The notes: generated by a model from the sequence alone, not told the origin. Counted from the stretch's first letter, positions 4,119 to 49,512 are shown. The stretch: DNA of 57,206 bases from Candidatus Woesearchaeota archaeon (GCA_016180105.1 JACPBZ010000026.1:1-57206); one strand, 5' to 3'. Program-made: numbers and translations.

Positions 4119-4416
4119 TTTCTGCTGAATAGGCTGTTTGGGGCTTTGGCTTGTATTGCTGCCAGCTTAATCGCCTGCCTTGGTGGGTGGTGACTTCCAC
4201 AAGCCCCGTTCCAGGTATGACCGTAAGCTTTTCTTCAGGGTTTCTTATTACGTATCTTGATTTTCCCTCGAGCATCAGGGGCACTTCTGCAAGCCTTTGG
4301 TCTACAAGAAGCACATAAAGCACTGCGTGGCCATCCAGTCCTGTATCAAAGTCAATTCCAAGATTATTCCCCTCGCCTATCAGCTTACTCAGGTGAATGT
4401 CCAGGCTTGTTACCAT
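4108..4416 (-). CDS. Hypothetical protein
   Basis: 102-aa ORF, translationally coupled to the 79-aa membrane protein. I recognise no motif. Confidence 0.4.
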   Translation of the reverse strand: MVTSLDIHLSKLIGEGNNLGIDFDTGLDGHAVLYVLLVDQRLAEVPLMLEGKSRYVIRNPEEKLTVIPGTGLVEVTTHQGRRLSWQQYKPKPQTAYSAENAK

Positions 4417-4492
4417 TCGTGATCTGGGCTGCTGATTGATTATTTAAATTTTTTTCATAAAATTTTTATGGCGCGCGTCTTCAGTTGCCGCC

Positions 4493-6796
4493 ATGCTAAT
4501 AAAGAGTGTGAAGCTTCATAACATTCGCAGTTACTTGAGCCAGGATGTGGCTATTCCTGAGGGCACTGTTCTTCTCTCAGGCGATATAGGCTCTGGAAAG
4601 TCCACTATTCTTCTTGCGATTGAGTTTGCGCTTTTCGGCATTAATAAGGGACTCCTTTCGGGTGAGGCGTTGCTTCGGAATGGCAAGCAGTCGGGCTTTG
4701 TTGAGCTTGCTTTCTCCTTTGATGGCCGTGATGTTGTGATACGGCGCAGCTTAAAGCGCGTGAAGGATTCCGTGCGGCAGGATGAGGGATTCATTTCTGT
4801 TAACGGCTTGAAGCAGTTCTGCACTGCTGATGAAATCAAGGCGCGCGTTCTGGAAATGCTTGGCTATCCTAAGGAGCTGCTGAGGAAGTCAAAAGGCCTG
4901 ATTTACCGCTTTACTGTTTACACTCCCCAGGAGGATATGAAGCGCATCCTGTTTGAGGACCCTCAGGCAAGGCTTGACACCTTGCGGAGGGTTTTTCAGA
5001 TTGAGAAGTACAAGCTTGTTCGTGAAGGCACTGCGATAGTCCTTCAGGCCCTCCGTGAAAGGCGCCGCGAGCTTGCAGCGAGAATTGAGGACCTTCCCCA
5101 GAAGCAGGAGCAGCTTTCAAAAATTTCGGGTGACTTGGCTGCAATTGATGCCCGGGCGAAAGTGTTGTTGCCTCTGATTGAGAGTTCTGAAACTTCTGTC
5201 AGCGAAAAGAAGGCGCAATTGAGGGCGCTTGAGGAAAAGTCCAGGGAGATCTCTCTGTTGAAAAGCAGGTTTGCGGCATTAATTGCTATTTTTGAGGAAA
5301 AAAGGAGCTTGATGGCGCTGCGGGAAAAGGAAGTCAGCTCTCTGAAAAGTGAAATAGCATTGCTCCAAGAAGGGTTATCTGATAATTCCTCTGCCTTGTC
5401 ACAGCTTTCATTCTCGCTCTCAAGGCTCAAGTCTTTTTCGGATTATCTCCTGGGTGACATTGGTGCTAAAAAGCAGCTTGAGGGGGAATTAGCTTCTGCT
5501 GAGCAGCTTAAGTCCGAGGCGGAATCTGAGCTGGGCAGGAATGAGGCGCTTAAGGCGTCTGCGCAGCAGCTTTTGGAAAAAATATCTGCCCTGTCAAGCT
5601 GCCCTACCTGCCTTCAGCCTGTTGAATCCGGCCACAAGCATAGTGTTTCAGCCGAGCAGGAGAGCAGGATTGCTGGTTTTGCAGTGAACATCGCGTCGGC
5701 TTCTGGAAGAAAGTCATCATCGCTCCAGAGGATAATCTCTCTTAGGACAAGGCTTGTTGATATTCAGTCGAAGGAGAAGATTGTTGCAGTGCTTTCTTCC
5801 GAGCTTAAGCCTTACTTTGAGTTGGCGTCTGTTTTCAATGTCAGCCTGCATTCGCAGCAGGTTCAGCAGTTTGGGAACCAGTCTCAGGTCTTGCAGCAGG
5901 CGATGAGGCCTGTTCTCTCCGTGGCCGAAATGCAGGCGGAGCTTTCCATTCTTTCCTCTGCAAGGAAAGCTTTGGACGCCTCAAGGGAGCGCACGCTGCT
6001 TGCTTCAGAGAAGGAGAAGGTTATTTCGCTCGCGGAGCGTCAGGTGAGCTCGTGGAAGTCAGAGCTTCAGGCTCTTGATTCTGAGAAGGGAATTCTTTTA
6101 GCGTCGATTGAGCGTTTTGGGGATGTTCAGGCAGAGTCAGCGGCTCTTCACTCTGAATTGGACAGGCTTGTTAATGACCATACGGCCTTGATGATGCAAA
6201 AAGCCGCCCTTGAACGGGAAATCGAGAGCCTTTCAGCGGCGGCAAAATCCCTTGCTGGGGAAATCGCGCGAAAGGAGTCTGCAAGGAAGGAGCTTGAAAG
6301 CTCATCCAACCTGGCTTTTTGGCTTGATGAGATGTTTACGGGCCTTGTTTCCGTTATTGAACGGCACGTCATGATGAAAGTTCATCAGGAATTTAATGTC
6401 CTTTTCAGGGATTGGTTCACGATGCTGATGGGCACGGATTCGCTCTCGGCGAGGATTGATGAGGAGTTTACTCCTGTTGTGGAGCAGGATGGCTTTGACA
6501 CCCCGATTGAAAATCTTTCAGGGGGAGAGAAGACGAGTTGCGCGCTCGCATACAGGCTTGCTCTCAATGTGGTCATAAACAATCTCGTTTCCACAATCCG
6601 CACAAAGGATTTGCTCATTCTCGATGAGCCCACTGATGGTTTCAGCTCAGAGCAGCTTGACAAGCTTCGCGATGTGCTGATGCAGATGCAGCTGCCGCAG
6701 GTCATAATCGTGAGCCACGAGGACAAGATTGAGAGTTTTGTCCAGCACGTCATACGCGTCCAGAAGGAGCAGCACGTCAGCAGGGTTGTGGCATAA
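4493..6796 (+). CDS. rad50: Rad50 / SMC-like DNA double-strand break repair ATPase
   Basis: 767 aa. It has Walker A GDIGSGKST, long coiled-coil regions, a central CPTC zinc hook (SSCPTCLQP), the signature LSGGEKT, Walker B LLILDEPT and an IIVSHE H-loop. Confidence 0.9.
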   Translation: MLIKSVKLHNIRSYLSQDVAIPEGTVLLSGDIGSGKSTILLAIEFALFGINKGLLSGEALLRNGKQSGFVELAFSFDGRDVVIRRSLKRVKDSVRQDEGFISVNGLKQFCTADEIKARVLEMLGYPKELLRKSKGLIYRFTVYTPQEDMKRILFEDPQARLDTLRRVFQIEKYKLVREGTAIVLQALRERRRELAARIEDLPQKQEQLSKISGDLAAIDARAKVLLPLIESSETSVSEKKAQLRALEEKSREISLLKSRFAALIAIFEEKRSLMALREKEVSSLKSEIALLQEGLSDNSSALSQLSFSLSRLKSFSDYLLGDIGAKKQLEGELASAEQLKSEAESELGRNEALKASAQQLLEKISALSSCPTCLQPVESGHKHSVSAEQESRIAGFAVNIASASGRKSSSLQRIISLRTRLVDIQSKEKIVAVLSSELKPYFELASVFNVSLHSQQVQQFGNQSQVLQQAMRPVLSVAEMQAELSILSSARKALDASRERTLLASEKEKVISLAERQVSSWKSELQALDSEKGILLASIERFGDVQAESAALHSELDRLVNDHTALMMQKAALEREIESLSAAAKSLAGEIARKESARKELESSSNLAFWLDEMFTGLVSVIERHVMMKVHQEFNVLFRDWFTMLMGTDSLSARIDEEFTPVVEQDGFDTPIENLSGGEKTSCALAYRLALNVVINNLVSTIRTKDLLILDEPTDGFSSEQLDKLRDVLMQMQLPQVIIVSHEDKIESFVQHVIRVQKEQHVSRVVA

Positions 6797-10369: not shown

Positions 10370-10478
10370 GCCCTGGTGGTTCAGCCTGGCCTAGAATACA
10401 GCCCTGTCACGGCTGCGACCCGGGTTCAAATGTCACGATCGCCTATTCGCGACGGGCTTGAGAGTCCCGGCCAGGGCG
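10370..10478 (+). tRNA. tRNA-Asp (anticodon GTC) with a T-loop intron
   Basis: Acceptor gccctgg/ccagggc. Anticodon stem cagcc/ggctg with loop ctGTCac. The T stem ccggg + ttcaaa(t) is interrupted by a 34-nt insert at about 10431/2-10464/5, before cccgg. Discriminator g. The mature length is 75 nt. Confidence 0.8.
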
Positions 10479-10519
10479 TTTAGTGCGCCGGCTGGGATTC
10501 CGAGCGATTAGTGAGGTTA

Positions 10520-10536
10520 TCCCGGCCAGGGCGTTT
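10520..10536 (+). repeat. Orphan duplicate of the tRNA-Asp 3' exon
   Basis: tcccggccagggcgttt is identical to 10465-10481, which covers the T-stem 3' strand, the acceptor 3' strand, the discriminator and trailer. A similar intron-end-like gag..t precedes it. Confidence 0.9.
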
Positions 10537-14271: not shown

Positions 14272-16741
14272 ATGCAAGACGATGCCGAGCCGTATGTGTA
14301 CAAGAAAGTGAGCGCAGTTACTTTTGGCGTTCTCAGCCCGAAGATGATTAAGAAGATGGCTGCTGCCAAGATTGTCACGCCTGAGCTTTATGACAAGGAG
14401 GGCTACCCTGTTGATGGCGGCCTTATGGATGTGAGGCTTGGCGTGATTGATCCGGGCTTGAGGTGCAAGACTTGCGGCTCAAAGCTTAAGGAGTGCACTG
14501 GGCACTTTGGCTACATCTCGCTTGCGAGGCCGGTAATTCATATCAGCTTTATCTCGGTCATTCTTACATTGCTGAGGTACACGTGCAGGGAGTGTTCCCG
14601 CGTGCTTTTGCCCACCGCAAGGATTGACCAGTATGGCGAGAGGCTTAAGCGCCTTGGCAAGGACAAGGGGCCTGAGGTAATGAGGAAGAAGCTCAAGGAC
14701 CTTATCAGCGCATCAAAGTCTGTTAGCAAGTGCCCGCATTGCAAGGCTAAGCAGAAGAAGATTCTGCTTGAGAAGCCCAGCACTTTCTTTGAGGATGACA
14801 AGCGCATTTCCCCGATTGAGATAAGGAGCAGGCTTGAGAAGCTTCAGGATGCTGATATTGAGCTTTTTGGCCTTAATCCTGGCGCAGTGAGGCCTGAATG
14901 GATGATTCTCACTGTTTTGCCAATTCCTCCTGTCACGATGAGGCCTTCCATTACCCTGGAGACTGGCGAGCGCTCTGAGGATGACCTTACTCACAAGCTT
15001 GGCGATATTGTGAGGATTAACCAGAGGCTATTTGAGAACATCAACGCAGGCGCTCCTGAAATCATAGTTGAGGACCTTTGGGACCTTTTGCAGTATCACG
15101 TTACGACCTTCTTCGATAATGAGGTTGCGCAGCTGCCTCCCGCAAGGCACAGGTCAGGCCAGCCACTCAAGACATTAACTGAGAGGATTAAGAGCAAGGA
15201 GGGCCGCATCAGGCACAACTTGACTGGCAAGAGGACTAACTTTTCCGCAAGGACGGTCATCAGCCCCGACCCAATGCTGGAGCTTAATGAAGTGGGCGTT
15301 CCGGACATAATGGCGATGAAGCTTACTGTTCCTGAGAGGGTTACTGAGTGGAATATGGCTTACCTTAAGGAGTTTGTGAGGAAGGGCCCGAAGAGTTATC
15401 CTGGCGCGAATTATGTCATCCGGCCTGATGGCCGCAAGAAGAGGCTGACTGAGGAAACTATCGAGGCTTCGGTTGAGGAGCTTCAGCCTGGTTACATTGT
15501 TGAGAGGCACTTGATGGATGGTGACATTGCCATCTTCAACAGGCAGCCATCGCTTCACAGGATGAGCATGATGTGCCATCGCGTGAGGGTTTTGCCCTGC
15601 AAGACTTTGCGCCTTAATCCTGCCGTGTGCTTCCCTTACAATGCGGATTTTGATGGCGACGAGATGAACCTTCACATTCCGCAGACTGAGGAGGCCCGCT
15701 CGGAGGCAGAGCTTTTGATGCTGGTTGATACCCAGATGATTTCCCCAAGGTATGGCCTTTCGGTCATAGGCTGCATCCAGGATGCGATATCTGGCAATTA
15801 CCCTTCTTCCCGAGAATTTTAACTTTTCCGGAAGGTCGAAGTCGCGGGAGGAGCCTGAGGTTGTTATCAAGGGCGGCAAGCTCGTGAGCGGCGTTATGGA
15901 CAAGAATAACCTTGGTGAGGGCTCTGGCTTGCTTCTTAGGAACCTGCACAAGAAGTATGGCAGGCAATTCGCCCTGGACACGCTTGGCAAGATGTTCAAG
16001 CTTGGCATTGCCCTCTTAATGAAGCGGGGCTTTACCACTGCGCTTTCCGATACTGACTTGCCTGGTGAGGCAAAGGCTGCAATCAAGGCTGTCTTTGAGA
16101 AAGCCGAGCAGGATGTTGCTGAGCTGATCTCGCAGTATAATTCGGGCCAGCTTGACATATTGCCTGGCCGTACCTTGAAGGAAACTTTGGAGCTGAAGAT
16201 TCTTGAGGTCCTTAATAAGGCTCGTGACGAGACTGGCAAGATTGTCGCAATGAATGTTGAAAGCTACTCGCACACTATTGTTATGGCAATTTCAGGTGCT
16301 CGCGGAACGCCTCTTAACCTTGCACAGATGGCAGGCTGCGTTGGCCAGCAGGCCCTTCGTGGCAAGAGGATTGAAAACGGCTATTACCAGAGGACGCTGT
16401 CCTGCTTCAAGCGTGATGACCTTTCGCCTGAGGCTCGCGGCTTCATCAAGAGCAGCTTCAAGGCTGGCCTGAAGCCCGCGGAATTCTTTTTCCAGTCGAT
16501 AGTTGGCCGTGACGCGCTTATGGACACTGCATTGAGGACTCCAAAGTCGGGATACCTCTATAGGAGGCTTGCTAACGCGCTTCAGGACCTTAAGGTTGAG
16601 TATGACGGCACTGTCCGCGATTCTGGAAAGAGGATTGTGCAGTTTAGTTACGGCGAGGATGGCATTGATGTTTCGAAGTCTGAAGGCGGCGTGCTGAACA
16701 TCAAGAGGGTGGCTTCAGAGGCGCTGGAGAGGGGTGAGTAA
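14272..16741 (+). CDS. rpoA1: DNA-directed RNA polymerase subunit A' (Rpo1N). The reading frame is interrupted near 15802.
   Basis: The two track ORFs (14272-15822 and 15782-16741) carry contiguous Rpo1 homology: the Zn motifs, the [12 protein letters not shown] active site, then GRTLKETLE and GARG. Homology switches frame exactly at aat tac c|ctt ctt (CCC at 15801-15803). Confidence 0.85.
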
Positions 16742-25278: not shown

Positions 25279-27920
25279 ATGGCGGCTGTTAGCGATTCTG
25301 GAATAATGAGGAAGGAAGTTCCAAACGACTCCAGTGAGATACTTGGCGTTCTTAATCCCACTGTGAAGCAGTGGTTTTTTTCCCGTTTCAAGGAGTTCAG
25401 CCTGCCTCAGCTTTTTGGAGTGATGGAAATCCACGGCAGGAGTAACATCCTCGTTTCAGCGCCAACTGGCGCGACTAAGACATTGACAGCTTTTCTTAGT
25501 ATCCTGAACGAGCTTGTTGACAGCAGCGAGAAGGGCATTCTTGAGGACAGGATTTACTGCGTTTATGTTTCGCCCTTGAAGGCCCTTAACAATGACATTG
25601 GCAAGAATTTGAGGGAGCCTCTTGAGGAGATGGAGAAGATTGCGGGAAGGAAGCTGGGCATTCGCATAGGCGTGCGCACTGGTGACACGACAGCTTCCGA
25701 GAAGTCCAGGATGCTTGCAAAGCCGCCGCATATCCTGATTACCACGCCTGAGTCGCTGGCCATTGTGCTTTCCGCCTCTAAATTTGTTGCTCACTTGGGA
25801 AATGTTGAGTGGTGCATTATTGATGAGGTTCACGCCCTGGCTGAGAACAAGCGCGGTGTTCACCTTTCGCTGAGCCTTGAGCGCCTTCAGAGGCTGTCTC
25901 CCGGGATGGCCCGCATTGGCTTGTCAGCGACAATTGCGCCCTTGGAGGAGATTGCCAAGTTCCTTGTGGGCTTGGAAGATTTTTCTTCCGGCAGGTATCG
26001 CAGCTGCAGGATTTGTGATGTTCAGTTTGTCAAGAAAATGGACTTGAAGGTCATCAGCCCGGTGCCTGACCTGATTGATGCTAGCCGGGCTCAGATGCAG
26101 GATTCGATGTATGTTTTGATTGACGGCCTTATCCAGAGCCACAGGACAACTCTTATCTTCACTAATACGAGGTCGGCGACAGAGCGTGTCATTAATCATC
26201 TCAAGGAGAGGTTCCCGAAAAATTATGCGGCAGCCGAGCCCTCCATTGGCGCGCACCACGGCTCTCTCAGCAAGGAGCACCGTTATGGTATTGAGTCGGC
26301 CTTGCGGTCTGGGAAGCTGAAGTGCGTTGTCAGCAGCACGAGCCTGGAGTTGGGTATTGATATTGGCTACATTGACCTTGTGATTTTGCTTGGGAGCCCG
26401 AAGTCGGTCGCAAGGGCCATTCAGAGGATTGGCCGCTCTGGTCACAAGCTTCACGAAGTTTCAATGGGCAGGATAATTGTCCTGGATAGGGATGACCTGA
26501 TTGAGTGCGCTGTCCTCCTGAAGTCAGCCATCGAGAAGGACATTGACAGGATTCACATTCCCTCTAACTGCCTTGATGTTCTTGCCCAGCAGGTTTTTGG
26601 GATTGCCATCGCTGACACTATGAGCGTCAATGACCTTTATGGTCTTGTGCGCGGTAGCTATTGCTATAGGGATTTGTCATTCAAGGATTTGAAGGAAGTC
26701 CTGGATTATCTTAGTGGAAAGTTTATCTCCCTTGAGGACCGCCACATTTACGCCAAGATATGGCACGATGAGTTGACTGGAATGATTGGCCGCCGGGGAA
26801 GGCTTAGCCGCGTTATCTACATGACGAACATCGGCACCATTTGACAGTGAAAATTGCCGGCACTGAGGAGGTTGTTGGGAAGGTTGACGAGTCTTTCCTT
26901 GAGAGGCTTAAGAAAAGCGATGTTTTTGTGCTGGGCGGGGATAAGTACCAGTTCGGCCACGCCAAGGGAATGGTTGCTTATGTGCACAGCTCGGTTGACA
27001 GGCAGCCTACCATTCCTTCCTGGTTTTCCGAGATGCTGCCGTTGAGCTTTGACCTTGCGATGAGCATCGGCAAGTTCAGGAGGCTGATGGAGGAAAAGTT
27101 CAATCACAATCGCAGCAAGGCGGAAATTCTTGAATTCATAAACGGCTACCTCTATGTTGACAGCAACGCCGCTGAGTCGATTTACGACTATTTCAGGGAG
27201 CAGTTTCTCTTCCTGGAGATTCCTCACGACAAGAAGATATTGGTTGAGTCGTATTCTGAGCAAGGGCGCCATTATGCTGTTTTTCATACTCTTTTCGGGA
27301 GGAGGGTGAATGATTGCCTTTCTCGCGCCGTGGCTTTCGCGATTTCCCGGACGCAGCATCACGATGTTGAGGTTGGCATTACTGACAACGGTTTTTTCGT
27401 TGGCTGCCCAAGGGCTTTTAATGCAATGGCGGCATTCAAGCTTCTTAATTCGGAAAAGCTTTCCCAGGTGCTTTCAGCCGCCATTGAGCAGTCAGAAATC
27501 CTTCGGAGGCGCTTCAGGCACTGCGCTGCGCGCTCGTTGATGATCCTGCGCGAATATCTTGGTCACAGGAAAAGGGTTGGCAGGCAGCAGGTGTCTTCCC
27601 AGATACTGATTAATGCCGTGCGCCGGATTAGTCCTGATTTTTGCATCCTTAAGGAAGCCAGGAGGGAAGTTCTCGAGGACCTGATGGACCTGCCTTCCAC
27701 GTCGTTGGTTATTAAGCTCATTGAGGATGGAAAGATAAAGCTTAAGCAGGTTAATGGCTCAATGCCTTCGCCTTTCGCATTCAACATTGTCCTTGAGTCC
27801 CACACTGACATGATGCGTATGGAAGACAAGGTTGAGTTCCTCAAGAGGATGCATCAGAAAATTCTTGATCGGATTGGTGTTCGAAGCCGGAAGGAGGCTG
27901 CGGAAGCCTCGGCAGCCTAA
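25279..27920 (+). CDS. lhr: Lhr-family DEAD/DEAH-box helicase. It is either split or frameshifted at 26839-26844.
   Basis: ORF1 has the helicase motifs APTGATKT, DEVH, SAT and QRIGRSGH. ORF2 has the Lhr C-terminal (DEAD_assoc-like) region. Homology continues from NIGTI directly into (L)TVKIAGTEEVVGKVDESF with a 1-nt frame change at aTTTga. Confidence 0.8.
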
Positions 27921-29088: not shown

Positions 29089-29304
29089 ATAAGTTTGACT
29101 AAGTTAAGCTTAGTATGGTTCAAGCCTTGGTTGAAATTGGATGGAATTAGGTCTGATCCGACGTATCAGGGAATAAATCCAAAACATAAGCAGTCACTTA
29201 CGGCCGTGTATCGGGAAGCACGTTCTTGTTAGATCTAGTTCGGATTTCTTGCGAGTACCGGTTAGCAGTCCCAGAAGACGACAAAAATGTGGATATTTAG
29301 GCGA

Positions 29305-29338
29305 GTAGAACCTGCACTTACAGTTCACCGCCGTAACA
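29305..29338. repeat. Island-boundary repeat D, related to the flanks of repeat B
   Basis: gtagaacct-gc-acttacagttcaccgccgtaaca compares with gtcgaacct-[16 nt]-acttgcagttcagcgccgtcaca at 32537-32584. Confidence 0.7.
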
Positions 29339-29387
29339 TGGCAAGTTTTGGGCCATTTGGCTTAAGACGTTTAAAGAACAAATTGGC

Positions 29388-29660
29388 CTACTTGTCTAAG
29401 ATTATGCTTTGAGGTTGCCATCCTCTGGGAATTTTGTATCTGGTCTTTAGAAGAGTTACTGAGCTTATTCTCGCAATTACGAACGTTCTTTCTTCATTTC
29501 TCAAATGACAAAACGCAGTGATTGCGCTTTTCCAGATTTTATAGACGTCGATTACCCTTGTTGTGTGTTCATTGTTATGAGGACTGTAGTATGTTATCTT
29601 CAAACTCTTTTTATGTTCGAACGCTTTCTTCAGCAGGTTCACAATTTCGGATTTTTTCAT
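29388..29660 (-). CDS. Short stand-alone WYL-domain-like protein
   Basis: 90 aa. KSLKITYYSPHNNEHTTRVIDVYKIWKSAITAFCHLRNEERTFVIARISSV follows the WYL-domain core pattern (x-I-x-Y ... R-x-I-x-P/V ... C ... R-x-F-x-x-x-R-I). Confidence 0.55.
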   Translation of the reverse strand: MKKSEIVNLLKKAFEHKKSLKITYYSPHNNEHTTRVIDVYKIWKSAITAFCHLRNEERTFVIARISSVTLLKTRYKIPRGWQPQSIILDK

Positions 29661-29672
29661 CTGAAAAACCAG

Positions 29673-29801
29673 TTAATGCGGCCCCAGGCATCGGCATTCC
29701 TTTATGTGTGTCCAAAACTTCTTCTCGTCAGGCTTCATTTTGCAGCCGCAGCACGGGCATCTGTCTGACATTTCGAGTTCCTCTTTGTTTAGTTTACCCA
29801 T
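29673..29801 (-). CDS. 42-aa Cys-rich (putative metal-binding) micro-protein, unannotated
   Basis: Own translation: MGKLNKEELEMSDRCPCCGCKMKPDEKKFWTHIKECRCLGPH. An AGGAGG motif overlaps the HEPN stop, 4-5 nt before the ATG. The ORF is sandwiched 8 nt and 12 nt from its neighbours. Confidence 0.5.
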   Translation of the reverse strand: MGKLNKEELEMSDRCPCCGCKMKPDEKKFWTHIKECRCLGPH

Positions 29802-29809
29802 AGCTCCTC

Positions 29810-30370
29810 CTACTCAAATACTTCTCCAAGCCTTTTGACAAACTGCTTTGCGCTGCTTAACAAATCTTCAGCCAAATCTCTAGATATTTCTCCTACTTCG
29901 TAAGCTGCTGTTCTTCTTGTTTGTCTTCCTTTCGCAAGCATATCCACATATTCCTCTTTCAGCGACCTGGCTTTGTCAAGCATGTCCACAAGGCGCTCTT
30001 CCAGAATGCCCTCATGCACATAGTAGTAATACAAAGCCCAAACTGCCGCTTCATGCGGCCTTACCTTGTAGCCAATCCTGGCCAAGGCGGCCATAGCCGC
30101 ATGATACATCGCATAATATGCCGCTTCAATAACTGACTCGTAGCACCTGAACTTAGGGTTCAGACTGTGAACCTTCTTTAGCTTTTCATCTTCCGAAATG
30201 TTCCATAGCAGGTTGGCTACTACGAGGTTGAAGCCTGCCTTCTCCATGTGTTTTCCCGCAAGATGCTTGATTGTGATGTCTTTCTCGAGTGCTGGTTGCT
30301 CTCCACGCTGCGTCCTCTTGTAGTATTCTATTTTTCCTTTCAGTACTGCAAGGCTATATTTTAAGGTCAT
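29810..30370 (-). CDS. HEPN domain protein (putative toxin of the MNT-HEPN module)
   Basis: 186 aa, helical. AAYYAMYHAAMAALARIGYKVRPHEA and a C-terminal RQTRRTAAYE fit the PF05168-type HEPN pattern. It overlaps the upstream nucleotidyltransferase gene by 17 nt. Confidence 0.65.
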   Translation of the reverse strand: MTLKYSLAVLKGKIEYYKRTQRGEQPALEKDITIKHLAGKHMEKAGFNLVVANLLWNISEDEKLKKVHSLNPKFRCYESVIEAAYYAMYHAAMAALARIGYKVRPHEAAVWALYYYYVHEGILEERLVDMLDKARSLKEEYVDMLAKGRQTRRTAAYEVGEISRDLAEDLLSSAKQFVKRLGEVFE

Positions 30371-30986
30371 TTTCCACTTCCCTCACGTATTCAAAGAACT
30401 TTTCGCACCCGTAAATGACAACGTGATACCTTAAAGCTTCCTTCCCAACGTTGACGTCCTTGGAAGTGAGCATGCTTTGGAAAAGCTTCTTATCCATAAC
30501 GACGGCATTCAGCTCCACAGCATGTGCCATAGACAATGTGTTAGCTACTCTGGAAACTGTTTCCCTTTTCCTATCTTCAACAACAACCAGCAGGTCAACA
30601 TCGCTCTTTTCCCTCGCTGTGCCTTTTGCGTAGCTGCCAAAAACAGCCACAAAATGAAGGGTATTTGATTGTTTAGACTCATCAAGAAGCTTATCCAGAA
30701 TTCCCTTCAAAGTTTTATTATGTGAAAACAACTCTTTAGCCTTTGCAGCCTCACGCTGGCAAAGCAAAAGAATGGTGTTATACTCAGAAAGGTTAAGGGA
30801 GCATAAAGAAGAAGTGCCAACAACCCTCTTATTTAGGACACCATCTGCAACCATTGACATGACTTTATTGTAGATGAAGCTGTAACCTTTCCGGCCCAGT
30901 CTCCGGGCTATCTCATTGATGCTGTACTCAGCCAAAATGTTCTCATCATACAGCCCCACTATCTGCCGCTCAAGTTCGCCCGCCAT
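30354..30986 (-). CDS. wHTH-fused minimal nucleotidyltransferase (MNT, putative antitoxin)
   Basis: 210 aa with an N-terminal winged-helix-like region and the NTase motif VAVFGSYAKGTAREKSDVDLLVVV. Confidence 0.7.
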   Translation of the reverse strand: MAGELERQIVGLYDENILAEYSINEIARRLGRKGYSFIYNKVMSMVADGVLNKRVVGTSSLCSLNLSEYNTILLLCQREAAKAKELFSHNKTLKGILDKLLDESKQSNTLHFVAVFGSYAKGTAREKSDVDLLVVVEDRKRETVSRVANTLSMAHAVELNAVVMDKKLFQSMLTSKDVNVGKEALRYHVVIYGCEKFFEYVREVENDLKI

Positions 30987-31163
30987 AATTATTCCTCTTT
31001 TAAGATAACATTATCCCAAAAATAGGGTAACTGCTATATAAACTTTTTGGTGCCACAAAATGCATCAGCAGTCAGACTTCGGACAAGCTTTTTATATCCT
31101 TTCTCCGAGAGTGTGTGTAAAAGAAGCAGGACATTAGTCTTTTTATGGCTGTCAAGTTTGGTC

Positions 31164-31201
31164 GCGACGTCGCACTACTATACGCCGTCCTGTCCCGGCG
31201 T
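31164..31201. repeat. Island repeat A (38 bp, identical to repeat C)
   Basis: gcgacgtcgcactactatacgccgtcctgtcccggcgt. It contains a GCGAC|GTCGC palindrome and an ACGCCG-n8-CGGCGT hairpin. Confidence 0.9.
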
Positions 31202-31240
31202 CCTTCTCAAAACCAGAAACTTTATATAGTTGTAACATCA

Positions 31241-31261
31241 ATTAGTAGAAATATTACTAAT
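31241..31261. promoter_or_regulatory. Inverted repeat (attagta-n7-tactaat) upstream of abiEi, a candidate operator
   Basis: A perfect 7-bp inverted repeat lies 12 nt upstream of the ATG and downstream of a TTTATATA box (31221-31228). Confidence 0.35.
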
Positions 31262-31272
31262 TGGTGTTAATT

Positions 31273-31773
31273 ATGGAAGGGCTTTCAAGGAAGGAAATGG
31301 AAATTGTGTCATGGCTTGAATTTTACAACAAGTATTTCTTTTCTTCATCAGAAATAGACAGATTTGCAAAAAGCAGAACTCAGCGTTACAATTTTATCAA
31401 AAATTTGTTGAAAAAGAAACGAATTGTCAAGCTAAGCCGGGGCAGGTACTACCTGATAACTACAAAAGCCAAATCTGGAAGCTGGGCGGAACATTCCTTC
31501 ATTTTGGCAGATGAAACGTGCAGTGGTAAGGATTACGTCATCGGTGGGTGGGCAGCAGCCAACTACTGGCATCTTACTGATCAAATCCCCATGCAAATTG
31601 ATGTTTATACTACAAAACGGCAGGGTGTATTAAGAGTGCTCAATACACGCATTGTCTTTCATAGGACAACTGAACGAAGGGTGAATAGCGTTGTTGTAGG
31701 ACGCATCAGCAATCATCCCTTTAGGATTGAAAAAAAAGAGGATGCTAAAAAATGGCTGAAATCAACAAGATAA
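31273..31773 (+). CDS. AbiEi-family type IV antitoxin (transcriptional regulator)
   Basis: 166 aa from the ATG at 31273. The N-terminal wHTH with KRIVKLSRGRYYLI matches the AbiEi_4 signature. It overlaps the next gene by 22 nt. Confidence 0.65.
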   Translation: MEGLSRKEMEIVSWLEFYNKYFFSSSEIDRFAKSRTQRYNFIKNLLKKKRIVKLSRGRYYLITTKAKSGSWAEHSFILADETCSGKDYVIGGWAAANYWHLTDQIPMQIDVYTTKRQGVLRVLNTRIVFHRTTERRVNSVVVGRISNHPFRIEKKEDAKKWLKSTR

Positions 31774-32534
31774 GCCCCAGAGAATTTGCAGATATTGCTT
31801 CACGGCATCCATTTAACAATATCCTGCTCACTAAAGACTATTATGTCACCGTGTTTCTCTACTTATGCAAAGAGATTGATGGCTTGTATTTCAAAGGAGG
31901 GACCGCTCTGCAAAAAATATTTCTTAATCACAGTCGGCTAAGCGAGGATATCGATTATACTGTCACCATAGATGTGGAAGAGGCAAAAAGAGAAATAACC
32001 GAAGCGATAAAAGCGAGTCAATTTGCAACCAGCATAACCAAGGATAAGGATGTTGAAGGATTTACTCGTCTAGTTATTCACTACAAGGGTTTTGGTGATG
32101 AGGATGGAACAGTGTTTATTGACCTGAATAAGCGAGCCAGGCTCCTCCTTAAGCCTGAACGACACGAGATTAAACATTTTTATCCTGACAATATCCCAGC
32201 GTTTTCTGTCAATACTCTCGCACGAGACGAAATGTTTGCAGAAAAAGTTGCTGCCGCGGTTGGCAGGAACCGCCCAAGGGACTACTACGATGTTTACACG
32301 ATGATTAAAGCCAACCTGCCTATCAATCTTGACATAGTCAAACAGAAATGCAGGCAATCGGGCACTGAATTCAATGTTCCAAGAATGTTCAGCAAAGCCG
32401 ATAAGCTCAAAGTGAGATGGGACAGGGATATGATCCCCCTTCTGGCTGAAGAAGTTCCGTTCGTGGAAGTGATGAGAACACTGGCCAGGCACTTCAAGCT
32501 CAAGGAAGTAAAAGATACTAAAAGGGAAAGGTAG
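31752..32534 (+). CDS. AbiEii/AbiGii-family nucleotidyltransferase toxin (DUF1814)
   Basis: 260 aa with FKGGTALQKIFLNHSRLSEDIDYT, the hallmark motif of this family. Confidence 0.75.
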   Translation: MAEINKISPREFADIASRHPFNNILLTKDYYVTVFLYLCKEIDGLYFKGGTALQKIFLNHSRLSEDIDYTVTIDVEEAKREITEAIKASQFATSITKDKDVEGFTRLVIHYKGFGDEDGTVFIDLNKRARLLLKPERHEIKHFYPDNIPAFSVNTLARDEMFAEKVAAAVGRNRPRDYYDVYTMIKANLPINLDIVKQKCRQSGTEFNVPRMFSKADKLKVRWDRDMIPLLAEEVPFVEVMRTLARHFKLKEVKDTKRER

Positions 32535-32536
32535 TT

Positions 32537-32584
32537 GTCGAACCTCCTGTCCCGGCGTTATACTTGCAGTTCAGCGCCGTCACA
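32537..32584. repeat. Island repeat B, a hybrid of the A/C core and D-type flanks
   Basis: gtcgaacct + cctgtcccggcgttat + acttgcagttcagcgccgtcaca. It can fold as an imperfect long hairpin (cctgt..ccggcg / gcgccg..acagg). Confidence 0.8.
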
Positions 32585-32645
32585 GGATTGCAATCGGACA
32601 GTCAACTAAAAGAATGCTGCCTTATTTGGTCATTTGGAATTCATC

Positions 32646-33140
32646 TTATTTTATGTATGCGGGATTTTCAAGAATATTCCGTTCTTGATCTTTTCGGTTA
32701 TACGTCGTTCTTGAACAGTCCACAGGTCTGTCGAAACTTGTCAAATAGATTTCAGCAATCGCCAAAGGTCCGTGGACTAATGTTTCGTCAAGATAAAAGC
32801 AAACATTAGGTGTAATATTTTTCTGTCCACCTATAGGAATATATCCTATTGACGGCGCATCCATGTCCGGATACTTTTCATCCGTCTTCTTAGCTTTAAG
32901 TTCCAGACTCCCCTCTTTACTGTCAATATCAGAATTTCCAGTTACATTGTCCATCCATAAAAAATAGCGTGAACCACCCAATTCATAAACTATTCCAACC
33001 CCTTGATCAACTGTCTCCACAGCTCTTATTTGGCCAGTCACTTCAGGGGCTGCTTGAGCACAGGCAGATGTTATAAGAGCCGCAAGCCCACCCATTAATG
33101 CTACCCCTCTCACTTTCGAACTTAAAGACATTTCAATCAA
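32646..33140 (-). CDS. Secreted protein of unknown function
   Basis: 164 aa with an N-terminal signal peptide (VALMGGLAALITSACAQA). It lies inside the AT-rich island. Confidence 0.5.
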   Translation of the reverse strand: MIEMSLSSKVRGVALMGGLAALITSACAQAAPEVTGQIRAVETVDQGVGIVYELGGSRYFLWMDNVTGNSDIDSKEGSLELKAKKTDEKYPDMDAPSIGYIPIGGQKNITPNVCFYLDETLVHGPLAIAEIYLTSFDRPVDCSRTTYNRKDQERNILENPAYIK

Positions 33141-33260
33141 GATTCAGAAATTCGAACACCTATTTAAATTTATCTATTTTTACCACTTAATAGACGTAAA
33201 TTAAGAGCTTGCTTAACCTTTTTAATTTCCTGACAAAGGTCATATATCTTCAGAAATGGT

Positions 33261-33298
33261 GCGACGTCGCACTACTATACGCCGTCCTGTCCCGGCGT
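33261..33298. repeat. Island repeat C (38 bp, identical to repeat A)
   Basis: It has the same 38-mer as 31164-31201 and lies 12 nt from the stop of the flanking core gene. Confidence 0.9.
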
Positions 33299-33309
33299 TA
33301 AACTGCCTT

Positions 33310-43362: not shown

Positions 43363-43477
43363 AGCCCTGTAGTGTAGCGGTCAAGCACGGCAGGCTCTGG
43401 CCCTGCAAACCCTGGTTCGAATGTTGGCGCATGGCGGCAACACGCCAAGCGTTAGCGCGGATGTCCGGGCGGGGCTA
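43363..43477 (+). tRNA. tRNA-Gln (anticodon CTG) with a T-loop intron
   Basis: Acceptor agccctg/cggggct gives the archaeal A1:U72. Anticodon stem gcagg/cctgc with loop ctCTGgc. The T stem cctgg + ttcgaa(t) is interrupted by a 42-nt insert at about 43422/3-43463/4, before ccggg. The mature length is 73 nt. A T6 run follows. Confidence 0.8.
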
Positions 43478-43903
43478 TTTTTTCTTCAGCCAATCAATTA
43501 ACTCTTTTGAAACCTTATCCCAGAATTCTGCTATTTCTTGCGCTTGGTCGGGGCGCACAATTCCTCCTCTATACTCCTCATCATGTCTTATCCTTCTAAA
43601 CATGTCAATTTTTCGAAGTTCAAAATTTAGCTTTACATTAGCACCTTCTAGTATGCGTATGCTTGCCTCATGTGAGCGGGGTTCATAGCCACTCTTCCAC
43701 CATGCAGCATCTCCCAGTTGTCTGAATGCGTCATAAAATGACTTGAAAATGTTTGCCGCGGTTTCTTCTTTGATTGGTATACTTTTTCCAAAATTGGCGT
43801 TACGAACTGCAGCACCTATTAATGATTCTGCCCTAAGTAGATCAGGTGTTCGTTTCCATAATTCCTTTCTTTCAAGGTAGGATTTTATTTCTTCCTCGTT
43901 CAT
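43475..43903 (-). CDS. HEPN domain protein (second MNT-HEPN module)
   Basis: 142 aa with FRRIRHDEEY (an R-x-x-x-H...Y HEPN-type motif). Its stop codon overlaps the last 3 nt of tRNA-Gln. Confidence 0.65.
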   Translation of the reverse strand: MNEEEIKSYLERKELWKRTPDLLRAESLIGAAVRNANFGKSIPIKEETAANIFKSFYDAFRQLGDAAWWKSGYEPRSHEASIRILEGANVKLNFELRKIDMFRRIRHDEEYRGGIVRPDQAQEIAEFWDKVSKELIDWLKKK

Positions 43904-44481
43904 AATCTCACCTCCAAGACTCCAGAAAGAACTATGCCGTTTGCTAGGTTTGTGAACAGATTTAAGTCAATACTCTTTCTATTAAAAGTTAGAATATGGA
44001 TTTTTCGGTCGATGGCTTTTTCATAAGCGTCAATTCCATCTGGCCTCACAGATGTTACACTCACATCTTCGGTTGTTTCAATAGCTATATCTATGTCTGA
44101 ATCAGACCTGTCCTGTCCCCATCTGTAACTTCCGAAAAGGATAATGGTTTTGGGATGGTTGAGTGATTCATCTAGGAATTCAACTAGTCCGCTTTCATAA
44201 ACTACGTTGAGGTTGTGAACTATTTTTCTTTTAATAAATTGATAGCTTTCAGTTTTAGCCTTTATCCTGAAAACTACGCCCTGATTTACGGTTACAATTT
44301 CGTTCTCTTCAAGAACCCCTAAAAATCGGTTCATAGTACTCTTCGATATGCCTGCCGCTGAGGCAAGTTCAGTAAGACTGAACTCGGTTTCAGGAAAGTT
44401 ATATAGAACTGAAAGTACATCTCGGAGTTTGTTTCTTTCCAGCCATAAGAGTTCTTTTTTTGAAACGCTTGTTCTTTTCAT
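43900..44481 (-). CDS. wHTH-fused minimal nucleotidyltransferase (second MNT)
   Basis: 193 aa with an N-terminal wHTH (LTELASAAGISKSTMNRFLGVLEE) and the NTase motif ILFGSYRWGQDRSDSDIDIAI. It overlaps the HEPN gene by 4 nt. Confidence 0.7.
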   Translation of the reverse strand: MKRTSVSKKELLWLERNKLRDVLSVLYNFPETEFSLTELASAAGISKSTMNRFLGVLEENEIVTVNQGVVFRIKAKTESYQFIKRKIVHNLNVVYESGLVEFLDESLNHPKTIILFGSYRWGQDRSDSDIDIAIETTEDVSVTSVRPDGIDAYEKAIDRKIHILTFNRKSIDLNLFTNLANGIVLSGVLEVRL

Positions 44482-44505
44482 AGAACGAGTGTTCTATCTG
44501 TGGAA

Positions 44506-44966
44506 CTATTTAAATCTTTTGTAAGTGCACTGCACAAGTCCTGACTTGAATTTCTTGATGCCGTCTAGTTTTAGCCAGTGTTGCTTTTTGATTCCTGTGA
44601 AAAGTGGTATTCCCTTCCCAAGTATTACTGGGTGGATTGAAATGACATACTCGTCAATTAAGTCTGCGTTGAGTAGGTCTTTAGCAGTTTCTTTGTTAGT
44701 TCTACTCCGTCTTTGGCAAATTCAACTCTTGAATCTGGCTTGTTATTCTTTCTTGAGAGAACGTAGGTCTTCTTCCCAGTATGCGGCCACGAATCAAAGC
44801 TAAGGCTAAGTTCGTATGTTTTTCTTCCCATTATGATGGCATCAACACTTTTGTAGAATTTGGAGTAGCCGTAGTCGCCATCGCTAAATAGCCAGTCTAT
44901 CTCTCCTTTTGGCCCTGCAATGTATCCATCAAGGCTGCAGGCTATGAATAAGTTGACTTTGCGCAT
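44506..44966 (-). pseudogene. RibD_C/dihydrofolate-reductase-like gene, frameshifted
   Basis: The N-terminal ORF (MRKVNLFIACSLDGYIAGPKGEIDWL...) stops at 44658. Family homology continues in another frame (DLLNADLIDEYVISIHPVILGKGIPLF... to 44506). The switch is at the TTT run 44680-44682. Confidence 0.65.
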
Positions 44967-47417: not shown

Positions 47418-49512
47418 ATGGCAAAAAAAGCTGAGCTGGCTTCAGGGGAGAAAATCCTTGTGACGGCGGCATTGCCGTATGCCAACGGCCCCATTCATCT
47501 TGGGCATCTGGTTGAGTACGTCCAGGCAGATGTGTTCGTGAGGTTCCTTAGGCTTTCAGGAAAGGATGTGGTTTTTCTCTGCGCTGATGACACCCACGGG
47601 ACTCCCATTGAGATTGCGGCCTCGAAGCAGAACATTACTCCTGAGCAGCTCATTGCGAAGTATTATGAGGAGCATCAGGCTGATTTTGCGGCGTTTGGCA
47701 TCAGGTTTGACGTTTACCATTCAACAAACAGCCCTGAGAACAAGCATTACAGCGACCTTTTCTTTAGGAAGCTGACTGATAAGCGCCTGATTTACGAGAG
47801 GCTGATTAAGCTGACATACTGCGATAGTTGCAAGCGCTTCCTTCCTGACCGGTATGTCAGGGGCAAATGCCCGAAGTGTGGTGCTGATGACCAGTATGGC
47901 GACCAGTGCGAGAAGTGCAATGCGACTTACCAGCCTGTTGACCTTGTTGAGCCGAAGTGCGCGATTTGCGGCTCTCTTCCGGTCAGGAAGCAGTCTGTGC
48001 ATTACTTCTTCAAGCTAAGCGATTTCTCGGCCAAGTTGACGGAGTGGCTTGACGCGAATCATATCCAGGATGATGTCCGGCATTTTGTCGAGGGCTGGAT
48101 AAGGTCAGGCCTTCAGGATTGGGATATTTCCCGCGATGGCCCATACTTCGGCTTCAGGATTCCGGGTGAGACGAACAAGTACTATTATGTTTGGCTTGAC
48201 GCTCCCATTGGCTATATCGCCGCGACTGAGAAGTACGTGAAGGATGCTGGCGGAAGCAATGCCGTTGACGCTTACTGGCAGAATCCCAACGCGAGAATTA
48301 TCCACTTTATCGGCAAGGACATTACGCAGTTCCACTTGCTTTTCTGGCCTGCAATCCTTATGGGAGCCGGCTTCAGGCTGCCGTCGGACATCATTGTCCA
48401 CGGTCACCTTACTATCAATGGCGAGAAGATGTCAAAGTCCCGTGGCAATTTTCTTGTGGCTCGCGATTACCTTGCTGCGCCAGCGCACGATCCTGAATTC
48501 CTCAGGTTTTATTACGCTTCCCATCTCGTGAAACAGCGACCTTGTTGGGAACTTGGCAAATTTTGTGCACCGCACCTTGGTGTTCATCAATAACAACTTT
48601 GATTCCAGGCTTGGCAGCCTGGGCAGTGATGAGAAGTTCTTTTTGCAGCAGCTGCAGCCAAAATACGATTCTATTGTCCGGCATTACTCCGAGTACGATT
48701 TCAAGGATGCCGTGAAGGAGCTTCTTGAGCTTAGCAGTACGGGAAACAGGTATTTTCAGGAAAACCAGCCCTGGCAGCTAGTGAAGGCTGACAGGAAAAA
48801 ATGCCATAAAATCGTGACTGTTGCAGCGAACATAGTTAAGGACCTTATGCTGCTTTGCTATCCGATTTTGCCCGGTTATTCGGAGAAGGTTTTGAGGCTT
48901 TTTGGCTTTAGCGATTTTGCAAGGCTTGGCCTTGGCGAGCTTGGCAAGGCTGTTTCGGTGGAACGGATTGGCCAGTCAAGGATTATCTTCGCGCCCATTG
49001 AGGAAACAATTTCGATTGCGGAAATTTTTCCGGCCGTTCTTAGGGTGGGCCGGGTTGAAAGTGTTGAGGACCATCCGAATGCGGACAAGCTTTACGTCCT
49101 GAAGGTCAATCTCGGCGGCAGCGGTGGTAAGCCTAAGATAATCCAGCTGGTTGCTGGTTTGCGGCAGCATTACGGGAGAGATGAGCTTCTTGGAAGGAAA
49201 ATAGTTGTTGTCTCGAACCTGAAGCACGCGAAGCTTCGCGGCTATGAGAGCGAAGGGATGCTTCTCGCGGCAGATGATGGGAAGAAAGTTGTTCTTGTTT
49301 CGCCTGTGGATTCCCAGCCTGGAGACTTGGTGTTTCCAGAGGGCTCTGATGCTGATAAGATTGCATCATCCAGGAAGCAGCTGGCCATTGACGGGTTTTA
49401 CAGGCTTGGCTTGAAAGTGAGGGATGAGAGGGTGATGTTCGGGCTTAAGTCTTTGAGGACTGCAAGGGAAGTCATCCCTGTTGATGCTGCCGATGATGCC
49501 GTGGTTAGGTAA
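47418..49512 (+). CDS. metG: Methionine--tRNA ligase with a C-terminal tRNA-binding (Trbp111/EMAPII-like) domain. The reading frame is interrupted near 48531.
   Basis: ORF1 has PYANGPIHLGH, the Zn knuckles CPKCG...CEKC...CAIC and KMSKSRGN. ORF2 starts within the conserved LVGNLANFVHR helix and ends with the VEDHPNADKLYVLKV OB-fold. The frame switch is at the AAA run 48531-48533. Confidence 0.85.

Follow-up and report, generated by a model that had tools for sequence, protein, structure and literature searches.

Site-specific integration usually leaves a direct repeat of a tRNA 3' end as its scar. The cis-mobilizable elements (CIMEs) of Streptococcus carry cargo and attachment (att) sites without a recombination module, accrete in tandem and use an integrase from another element. 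How DPANN archaea, whose genomes are tiny and for which no cultured genetics exist, acquire and shed defence genes is poorly known. In the tycheposon model, successive integrations displace older elements and leave partial tRNAs behind (bioRxiv 10.1101/2020.12.28.424599). Here, we analyzed a 57,206-nt stretch of DNA from a Candidatus Woesearchaeota archaeon (hereafter the window), centered on an island at positions 29089-33309 that carries toxin-antitoxin (TA) and abortive-infection genes, among them an abiEi-abiEii pair (the AbiE unit), and compared it with related loci (designated by L-numbers). Our analysis makes it likely that this island is a mosaic of small mobile defence/TA modules, of which at least the right two-thirds was built by site-specific recombination at a core of tRNA-Ser type, with the AbiE unit as an integrase-less element within a tandem array.

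The described systems that compare with this locus include the tRNA-targeting integrative elements and islands, namely those of archaeal and bacterial tyrosine recombinases and the tycheposons of Prochlorococcus. As in these systems, direct repeats equal to a tRNA 3' end bound the units, the units are stacked and leave partial-tRNA scars, the cargo consists of defence and TA genes, and other genomes carry the element at the cognate tRNA. The island differs in that its units measure 0.7-2 kb, include no integrase, excisionase or replication gene, form an array away from a tRNA, and reside in a DPANN host. With CIMEs the island units share the tandem arrangement of cargo and att sites without recombination genes. 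CIMEs, however, are bacterial, derive from integrative and conjugative elements and have a known helper, whereas the units described here are smaller, have no helper in the loci examined, and include an AbiE unit conserved as a discrete entity in at least six genomes. Islands of tRNA att sites with decayed or non-autonomous elements are a well-known class; the miniature archaeal example is new, and it is no new type of system.

A preliminary description of this DNA had proposed an AT-richer accessory island set between core genes, and both parts of that proposal held. The GC content of 29089-33309 is 0.422 versus 0.499 in the rest of the window (z = -6.1 among all 4.2-kb windows), which makes the island the lowest-GC window of this size, every other one being at or above 0.463. 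The most deviant tetranucleotide content, scanned in 2-kb windows, was found in the island and in a second island at 43-45 kb. Most of the window consists of core archaeal genes (RNA polymerase, ribosomal proteins, Lhr, proteasome alpha, SBDS, and exosome). The left neighbor of the island encodes a metallophosphoesterase (MPE) whose homologues come nearly all from Candidatus Woesearchaeota or Nanoarchaeota (best 78% amino-acid identity), and the right neighbor encodes an HTH-CBS protein. No database record corresponds exactly to the MPE protein of the window. In L001, L002, and L004 (74-78% MPE identity), the MPE and HTH-CBS genes flank the same slot, within the conserved order Lhr - small variable genes - MPE - (slot) - HTH-CBS - Zn-ribbon - proteasome alpha - SBDS - Rrp4/41/42 - Rpb6. 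Two of the three relatives hold a DUF362 gene in the slot, and L001 holds genes for a DUF2683 protein, a RelE-like 95-aa protein and an inositol phosphatase. Because these relatives keep the flanks but carry different genes between them, the slot is variable, a hot spot of turnover, and the DNA that now fills it in the window is of foreign composition. An empty site between the MPE and HTH-CBS genes, proposed earlier as a check, was found in none of the three, the slot being filled with something else in each.

The right part of the island contains the following features (coordinates are those of the window):

31078-31201, plus strand: A element, with B recognition element (BRE)/TATA (31085-31099), the start of a short open reading frame (ORF; 31145), a 38-nt repeat (31164-31201) and the core CCTGTCCCGGCG (31189-31200); conserved in L076 and L020
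31201-32558, plus strand: AbiE mini element, with a P' arm bearing the TATA box (31221-28), a putative operator (31233-31269), abiEi, abiEii, and a P arm plus core (32535-32558, site B); delimited by BLASTN and hidden Markov models (HMMs)
31273 (best start)-31773, plus strand: AbiEi (PADLOC AbiEi, 4.9e-18)
31752-32534, plus strand: AbiEii (PADLOC AbiEii, 2.1e-37; Pfam AbiEii, 7.6e-30)
32559-33298, minus strand: third unit, with a motif-2 block (32559-32600), the secreted-protein gene (32646-33140) and repeat C (33261-33298), which ends in the core; delimited by repeat searches
32646-33140, minus strand: secreted protein of 164 aa with a signal peptide, of no family

According to the preliminary description, the island comprised three cassettes, each bounded by related repeats (D, A, B, and C) in the same orientation. 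Repeats A (31164-31201) and C (33261-33298) do form a perfect 38-nt direct repeat, 2,097 bp apart, and B (32545-32560) has only 14-16 nt in common with it. What A, B, and C share is a core of 12-13 nt, CCTGTCCCGGCG(T), with copies at 31189-31200, 32546-32557, and 33286-33297. The 13-mer CCTGTCCCGGCGT occurs in three exact copies in the window and in five when up to two mismatches are allowed, compared with a mean of 0.85 matches at the same tolerance in the shuffled window, where none of 100 shuffles reached five. D lacks the A/B/C repeat and shares instead a 27-nt block (motif 2) with 32563-32589, right of B (23/27). Local alignment of D to the tRNA-Ser genes of L020 and L076 was no better than that of shuffles, and ARAGORN run with introns found nothing in D. 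On the minus strand, the motif-2 block right of B reads as a degenerate inverted core, CCTGTGACGGCG (10/12), and site B is therefore an imperfect palindrome, 41 nt in length. The image of three equivalent cassettes between four related repeats thus has to be given up: D is a different motif, and the MNT-HEPN genes of the left part (see below) form a module of their own.

To trace the repeat in other genomes, an 18-mer of it was scanned against genomes representing one per prokaryotic species, and the 14-nt core was then sought in the matching loci. Most matches were chance ones in high-GC bacteria; two, L020 and L076, both from Woesearchaeota, were real, with similarity extending well past the 18-mer. 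A metagenome scan for the repeat gave three matches, all of them chance. Further core copies are present in the L020 and L076 loci, in a single orientation per locus. One of these copies, in L020, is the end of an intron-bearing tRNA-Ser(CGA) gene (4370-4501; ARAGORN with introns) that closes with CCCTGTCCCGGCG, its 3' end reading ...CGGGGTTCAAATCCCTGTCCCGGCG, and the intron-less tRNA-Ser(CGA) gene of L144 (971-1056; ARAGORN) has an identical end. A tRNA-Ser-like gene with a core end in L135 is labelled Thr by ARAGORN, which places the intron inside the anticodon; its CUCGAAA loop and long variable arm, read by eye, point to Ser(CGA). Reading by eye also revealed a Ser(GGA)-like gene with a T-loop intron in L076 and a Ser(UGA)-like gene with two introns in L145, both with this same end. 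The island cores match the final 12-13 nt of the tRNA-Ser genes in L020, L135, and L144, and because of this identity with tRNA-Ser gene ends in relatives, the core can be assigned to the T-stem 3' strand, the acceptor 3' strand and the discriminator of tRNA-Ser. Repeats A, B, and C are copies of a tRNA-Ser 3' end. The exact 12-mer CC[TA]GTCCCGGCG is present in 11 copies in 192 kb of Woesearchaeota DNA versus ~0.05 expected by our own arithmetic, and all 11 lie in cassette-bearing loci, with the same orientation within each locus. The earlier statement that no integrase, transposase or tRNA gene lies in or beside the island was correct on our window scans, and yet the repeats themselves are tRNA-derived.

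Small TA- and defence-rich units of single function, each ending in a short site-like repeat with no integrase nearby, are also what would be expected of a cluster of attC sites lacking an integron integrase (CALIN), the repeats being attC sites recombined by an IntI encoded elsewhere. Archaeal integrons have been described, including in Nanoarchaeota/DPANN, and CALINs and TA cassettes are common in them (PMC9668308). Site B, as a 41-nt imperfect palindrome, and the GTTAAAC that follows C, which fits the R' consensus GTTRRRY, would suit this explanation. Known attC sites are imperfect dyads of 57-141 nt (R''/L''-L'/R') in which crossover takes place between the G and the first T of GTTRRRY, and their structure is conserved while their sequence varies. 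The island shows instead an identical core of 12-14 nt equal to the tRNA-Ser 3' end, not a folded attC of variable sequence. As judged by eye, GTTRRRY follows the core at only one of seven junctions (others read, e.g., GTCCTTC, GTTATAC, GTGCTTC, and GTTTTTC), and A and C have a 6-bp stem with an 8-nt loop in place of a long R''-L''/L'-R' dyad. Moreover, the units bring TATA promoters of their own and do not all point the same way, the AbiE element is fused to real tRNA-Ser genes, and no IntI integrase with an attI upstream was found within the 57-kb window. An integron origin of the island is thus highly improbable.

The tRNA genes of this lineage deserve mention in their own right. Several have T-loop introns (window 43363-43484 and 10568-~10700; L076 4450-4578; L145 9237-9418), the tRNA-Gln gene of the window has a 41-nt insert (43423-43463) relative to L001, and a probable tRNA-Lys reaches only 30 bits in Rfam. 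Default ARAGORN gives a wrong 3' end for such intron-containing tRNAs or misses them, and the tRNA-Ser genes of the relatives are wholly missed without the intron mode. Two copies of a direct repeat, AAACGCCCTGGCCGGGA, lie in tandem 55 nt apart immediately upstream of this probable tRNA-Lys (window 10465-10526, minus strand). In L076, a "minihelix" lies just downstream of tRNA-Ser (4382-4463, minus strand) and consists of a core, 19 nt, a perfect inverted core (GCCGGGACTGGG), 23 nt, and another core; the L076 cassettes begin after this minihelix and not at the tRNA, and a truncated version is found in L144 (3057-3105). In Mycobacterium tuberculosis, the acceptor end of tRNA-Ser is modified by MenT3, a toxin of the AbiEii family, and here an element carrying AbiEii uses that same acceptor end as its attachment core (31189-31200), a link that may be coincidence.

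The AbiE unit recurs in other genomes between the same cores. The best AbiEii homologues have 81-89% amino-acid identity, compared with 78% for the core MPE protein, and the abiEi-abiEii pair is found in differing contexts: after the RNA polymerase-L7Ae-NusA genes (L133/134); behind a large surface-protein gene and tRNA-Ser (L135/136; in L135, 470 nt after the tRNA-Ser and behind another cassette); at a contig end that starts inside the core (L132); directly on an intact tRNA-Ser(CGA) (L144); and 20 nt past a tRNA-Ser(UGA), with a core variant at the same junction (L145). BLASTN alignments of the island with L132, L133/134, L135/136, and L144 (79-86% identity) start at 31187-31190, where the core starts, and end at ~32515. 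The DNA left of the core is unrelated in every genome, being tRNA-Ser, another cassette, the NusA flank or the A element. To the right of the left core lies a conserved arm, TCCTTCTCAAAA-N-TTTATATAGTTGTAACAT..., which carries the abiE TATA box and a 15-bp inverted repeat. This inverted repeat, TAACATCAATTAGTA / TACTAATTGGTGTTA (14/15; 31233-31269), lies between the abiE TATA box and the abiEi start in all copies of the AbiE element and is probably the operator of the AbiEi autorepressor.

The right ends tell the same story. That of L144, GTCGAACCTCCTGTCCCGGCGT, is identical to 32533-32558 (site B) at 25 of 26 positions and is followed by host DNA resembling the hairpin downstream of the L076 tRNA-Ser. 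That of L133, CCTGTCCCGGTG, has the same arrangement, so that both consist of the P arm plus the core, and the sequence after the right-hand core in L133 is similar to the right flank of B. The ends in L144, L133 and the window therefore suggest an attP of the form P arm (GTCGAACCT) - core - P' arm (TCCTTCTC...), with crossover inside the 12-13-nt core. The element measures 1.36 kb in the window and 2.0 kb in L144, where it includes an extra 158-aa ORF. Thus, core sites bound the AbiE unit both in the window and elsewhere, in some cases as part of genuine tRNA-Ser genes, and the homology between copies ends at the att core. An intact target tRNA at one end is absent in the window, present in L144, and nearly so in L135 and L145. 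As in CIMEs, att sites lie on both sides, recombination genes are lacking, and related units follow in tandem (A / AbiE / B / secreted gene / C). Between the window and L133, the AbiE element is 86% identical and the RNA polymerase genes are 72-80% identical, an excess that points to horizontal movement of the element. On these sequence comparisons, the AbiE unit is best described as an integrative element of about 1.4-2 kb without an integrase, shared among Woesearchaeota, and as such it would have to be moved by an enzyme encoded elsewhere.

Short units flanked by repeats and devoid of an integrase could in principle represent insertions of transposons or miniature inverted-repeat transposable elements, with the repeats as target-site duplications or terminal repeats. 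The unit ends, however, bear no terminal inverted repeats, no transposase is encoded in the window, and the same repeat sequence is found in different genomes and loci, for which reason it is not a target duplication. We give this explanation almost no credence.

The A element, which in the window supplies the left core of the AbiE element, has its last 38 nt repeated perfectly at C, the distal end of the secreted-orphan unit. It is 80% identical to L076 over 133 nt, BRE/TATA included, with a T5 run after the core in L076, and 84% identical to L020 over 79 nt, the promoter part being absent in L020. In both relatives it lies 0.8-1.8 kb from tRNA-Ser, beside TA genes or unknown small genes. In L076 these are a MazE/ParE pair, an HNH protein and DUF167; in L020 they are a Fic protein and a Zn-ribbon/AbrB-like ORF, the two in L020 having been recognized by eye in the translated sequence. 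From this distribution, the A element appears to form the far end, with P arm and core, of units that belong to another family.

Alternatively, the A element could be a functional small gene with B and C as decayed duplicates. It might specify a small RNA transcribed from this promoter, the 3' part of a tRNA-Ser that is split or trans-spliced, or a peptide of 20-41 aa. The BRE/TATA is conserved between the window and L076, where the T5 run follows the core; a short ORF, MAVKxG...AVLSRR, stays open in all three genomes through two compensating 1-nt indels; and lineage tRNAs have T-loop introns whose 3' exon is exactly the core. Nevertheless, L020 keeps the element without its promoter part, and the C-terminus of the peptide differs in each copy. 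A split tRNA gene is not needed, since L020 and L076 have complete tRNA-Ser genes nearby. A structured RNA was considered for both the 38-mer and the A element and set aside, as these fold no better than shuffles (z = -0.3 to -0.9), show no compensatory pairs among the three copies and have no Rfam match. A small gene would also leave unexplained the fact that, in four further genomes, the core is where AbiE homology begins, and we consider it quite improbable.

The remaining features of the island and its junctions are as follows:

29089-29140, plus strand: left junction, conserved DNA downstream of MPE (83% nucleotide identity to L001 up to 29139)
29141-29387, no strand: non-coding DNA with repeat D (motif-2 block at ~29313-29339); no ORF, no family match
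29388-29660, minus strand: WYL-domain protein (Pfam WYL, E = 2.7e-11)
29673-29801, minus strand: 42-aa Cys-rich peptide, a Cys4 zinc ribbon, of no family
29810-30370, minus strand: HEPN protein (marginal Pfam match, 1.4e-4, 22.5 versus a cut-off of 22 bits)
30354-30986, minus strand: MNT nucleotidyltransferase with a winged helix-turn-helix (wHTH) (Pfam NTP_transf_2, 7.3e-11)
29823-31051, minus strand: two-gene module of MNT and HEPN, including a TATA promoter of its own (Pfam and PADLOC matches; 78% identical at the nucleotide level to L141/L142 and L143)
33299-33309, no strand: right junction (alignments with L001, L002, and L004)

Nucleotide homology between the window and its relatives ends at 29139 on the left and resumes at ~33306 on the right. 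On the right, core-genome homology returns ~8 nt past core C, at the HTH-CBS stop codon (33310). On the left, 29089-29140 is still homologous to a relative, so that the novel DNA begins at ~29141. The first 8-9 codons (MVQALVEI) of a DUF2683-type antitoxin gene were recognized at 29115-29141 by tblastn and alignment to the L001 gene, the L001 slot protein being a Pfam DUF2683 match. As read from this remnant, the incoming DNA truncated an older occupant of the slot, probably of TA type. The first 300 bp (29089-29387) had been described as non-coding; this is the case for 29141-29387 and not for 29089-29140, which retains these start codons and homology to L001.

The HEPN and MNT genes overlap by 17 nt and form one operon, in agreement with the definition of an MNT-HEPN pair, and the WYL and zinc-peptide genes lie downstream on the same strand. 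MNT-HEPN modules also occur independently in L141/L142 and L143, which are unrelated loci, without the zinc peptide and the WYL gene; the homology to the modules of L141 and L143 stops at 29823/29865. Among protein homologues of the pair, the close ones have 68-83% identity, after which values fall to ~40%. Judged from these alignments, MNT-HEPN is a separate two-gene module that would have arrived by a route other than att sites.

How the island was assembled had been left unclear in the preliminary description. It can now be largely explained by att cores of tRNA-Ser type and an enzyme acting in trans, because the core of A, B, and C is a tRNA-Ser 3' end and because the AbiE unit sits on real tRNA-Ser genes in relatives. 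We infer that a recombinase encoded elsewhere integrates units at the core and that repeated integration made the array. This enzyme would act on the core CCTGTCCCGGCG(T) of the AbiE unit, and successive integrations into one att site would yield the tandem order unit - core - AbiE - core - secreted gene - core - HTH-CBS, in which the left unit ends in the promoter-bearing A element and the right unit in a 38-nt copy of it. The target may have been an A-type core that mimics a tRNA end, or else the array may have formed beside a tRNA-Ser and moved here later; its arrival truncated the older DUF2683 antitoxin gene. The perfect 38-nt A/C repeat would mean that two A-type sites recombined recently and that this crossover introduced the 2.1-kb segment with AbiE and the secreted gene. 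On this scheme, the junction of an AbiE circle or tandem is predicted to read ...GTCGAACCT-CCTGTCCCGGCG-TCCTTCTCAAAA..., an AbiE-free site would read A left flank - core - TATACTTGCAG, and a site without the 2,097-bp segment would read A left flank - 38-mer - TAAACTGCC.

Several observations weigh against assembly by site-specific recombination. No integrase or recombinase domain was found in the island ORFs, the other window ORFs checked or ~10 related loci, so that the enzymatic step is entirely inferred; the element has no integrase of its own in the island or in the related loci, and the recombinase linked to the repeats that had been proposed as a check was likewise not found there. No excised circle or empty-site sequence was recovered. 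Four of five scans of viral contigs, which included the predicted attP junction, returned nothing, and the fifth gave five matches without flanking similarity that we judged to be chance. Neither a tRNA-Ser nor its GCCGGGA acceptor 5' strand in a tRNA context is present in the island or the 57-kb window. The left end of the first unit (D) carries no core, and motif-2-like blocks in L133, L135, and L145 lie on differing sides of the core, which is unexplained. The A element is known from only three independent copies. No tRNA-type core lies near the MNT-HEPN modules within the loci L141/L142 and L143, and the MNT-HEPN part is unexplained by the att model because these modules carry no cores elsewhere.

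Some of these points would be accommodated if the array were a fossil, built elsewhere by a tRNA-Ser and moved en bloc by homologous or illegitimate recombination after DNA uptake, or left behind when a local tRNA-Ser was deleted, with no att recombination at this site. The island has no tRNA, its left junction cuts off an older gene and shows no core, MNT-HEPN modules travel in the absence of cores, and the AbiE unit and the motif-2 sequence on its right are adjacent in L133 too, which suggests that composite pieces move together. On the other hand, the core at the right junction lies within ~8 nt of conserved host sequence, the perfect 38-nt identity of A and C, which flank 2,097 bp of otherwise diverged non-coding context, resembles a recent crossover in situ between two A-type sites, and the L133 AbiE unit is away from any tRNA and still bounded by cores. 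A fossil origin is therefore unlikely, and we favor site-specific recombination at the tRNA-Ser-type core for the right two-thirds of the island.

A bolder version of this reading would see in these loci a Woesearchaeota cassette-exchange system, analogous to integrons but mechanistically separate, in which tiny promoter-bearing, integrase-less units (AbiE, TA pairs, orphan genes), each ending in a 12-nt mimic of the acceptor/T-stem end of tRNA-Ser, are handled by one trans-acting chromosomal recombinase, possibly Xer-like and of the host, and the ~125-nt A element serves as a portable, tRNA-independent landing pad. We think this rather doubtful; if true, arrays could grow anywhere in the genome and units could be shuffled between genomes.

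Candidate recombinases were examined individually. Proteins of 348-350 aa in L135 and L132 proved mutually unrelated, one being a PKD-domain protein and the other of no family. The 141-aa neighbor of HTH-CBS has a sub-threshold match to "recombinase zinc ribbon" (23.6 versus 25.3 bits), but this core gene is conserved throughout the relatives and its product lacks a catalytic domain. A split integrase of SSV type, with the promoter and N-terminal codons in the A element and the remainder after the tRNA core, found no support either, as the frames past the tRNA cores in L020 and L135 stop within ~10 codons. Among public data, unitigs identical to the window come from groundwater runs SRR121133xx-SRR121134xx, including SRR12113383-85 and SRR12113431; in Logan contigs identical to the window, the unitig breaks within the 38-nt repeat, and no alternative structures were seen.

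With regard to gene content, HMM searches confirmed the earlier calls for WYL, HEPN, MNT, AbiEi, and AbiEii, the 42-aa peptide and the secreted protein being without family. In an exhaustive search of 1.8 billion representatives, the 164-aa secreted protein had only itself below 1e-10 and is a true orphan. The nucleotidyltransferase toxin AbiEii is restrained by the autorepressor AbiEi in type IV TA systems of the abortive-infection kind, and MNT-HEPN is a type VII TA system of an RNase toxin and an adenylylating antitoxin. The abiEi and abiEii genes overlap by 22 nt, and the order of AbiEi (wHTH antitoxin) followed by AbiEii (DUF1814 nucleotidyltransferase) is the type IV layout. As predicted from these families, the island would encode an AbiE type IV TA system and a type VII-like MNT-HEPN system followed by a WYL sensor-regulator. 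Its matches to AbiEi, AbiEii, NTP_transf_2/Polbeta, and HEPN, and its overlapping gene pairs, resemble the described AbiE and MNT-HEPN (HepT-MntA) systems, and the inverted-repeat operator in the abiE promoter is as expected of an autorepressing AbiEi. In contrast to those systems, the host here is an archaeon, the MNT protein has an N-terminal winged helix, and the MNT-HEPN operon is extended by the zinc peptide and a stand-alone WYL protein.

Other TA pairs occupy variable slots around the same core genes in L004 (8656-9490), L001 (10768-11320), L144 (3260-3891), and L145 (254-391 and 2488-3077), and include UPF0175/DUF3368, DUF2683/RelE-like, RHH/PIN, MazE, and PIN types. TA turnover at these slots seems general in Woesearchaeota. 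The window itself contains a second AT-rich insertion (43363-44530, GC ~0.39) with a HEPN gene (43475-43903, minus strand) and a wHTH-MNT gene (43900-44481, minus strand). This pair is unrelated to the first (~28% identical) and sits exactly between tRNA-Gln and a DHFR/RibD_C-like gene, which are adjacent in L001; no repeat of the tRNA-Gln 3' end was found on the far side of this island. Finally, several essential genes in the window appear to be split by frameshifts into two overlapping ORFs (25279-27920, 14272-16741, 47418-49512, and 44530-44966). Lhr is encoded as 521 + 359 aa versus a single protein of 888-907 aa in relatives, RpoA' as 516 + 319 aa versus 865 aa in L133, MetRS as 391 + 319 aa, and the DHFR-like ORF has 102 aa versus 171 aa in L001. 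These splits could be assembly indels or real changes.

For annotation, this locus shows that the absence of a tRNA and an integrase does not exclude att-mediated assembly, that intron-rich archaeal tRNAs escape default tRNA finders, and that core repeats account for assembly breaks at such sites. With the core and its arms as a sequence tag, DPANN metagenomes can be searched for mobile cargo and for the missing recombinase. For the biology of the Woesearchaeota, this locus and seven related ones indicate that abortive-infection and TA modules travel as separate 1-2-kb units delimited by a tRNA-Ser end copy, that in a comparison of two genomes the AbiE unit is more strongly conserved than the RNA polymerase genes, and that units can accumulate away from any tRNA. 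The significance would grow if these units turned out to form an active cassette system that has a landing pad independent of tRNA and its own recombinase acting in trans.

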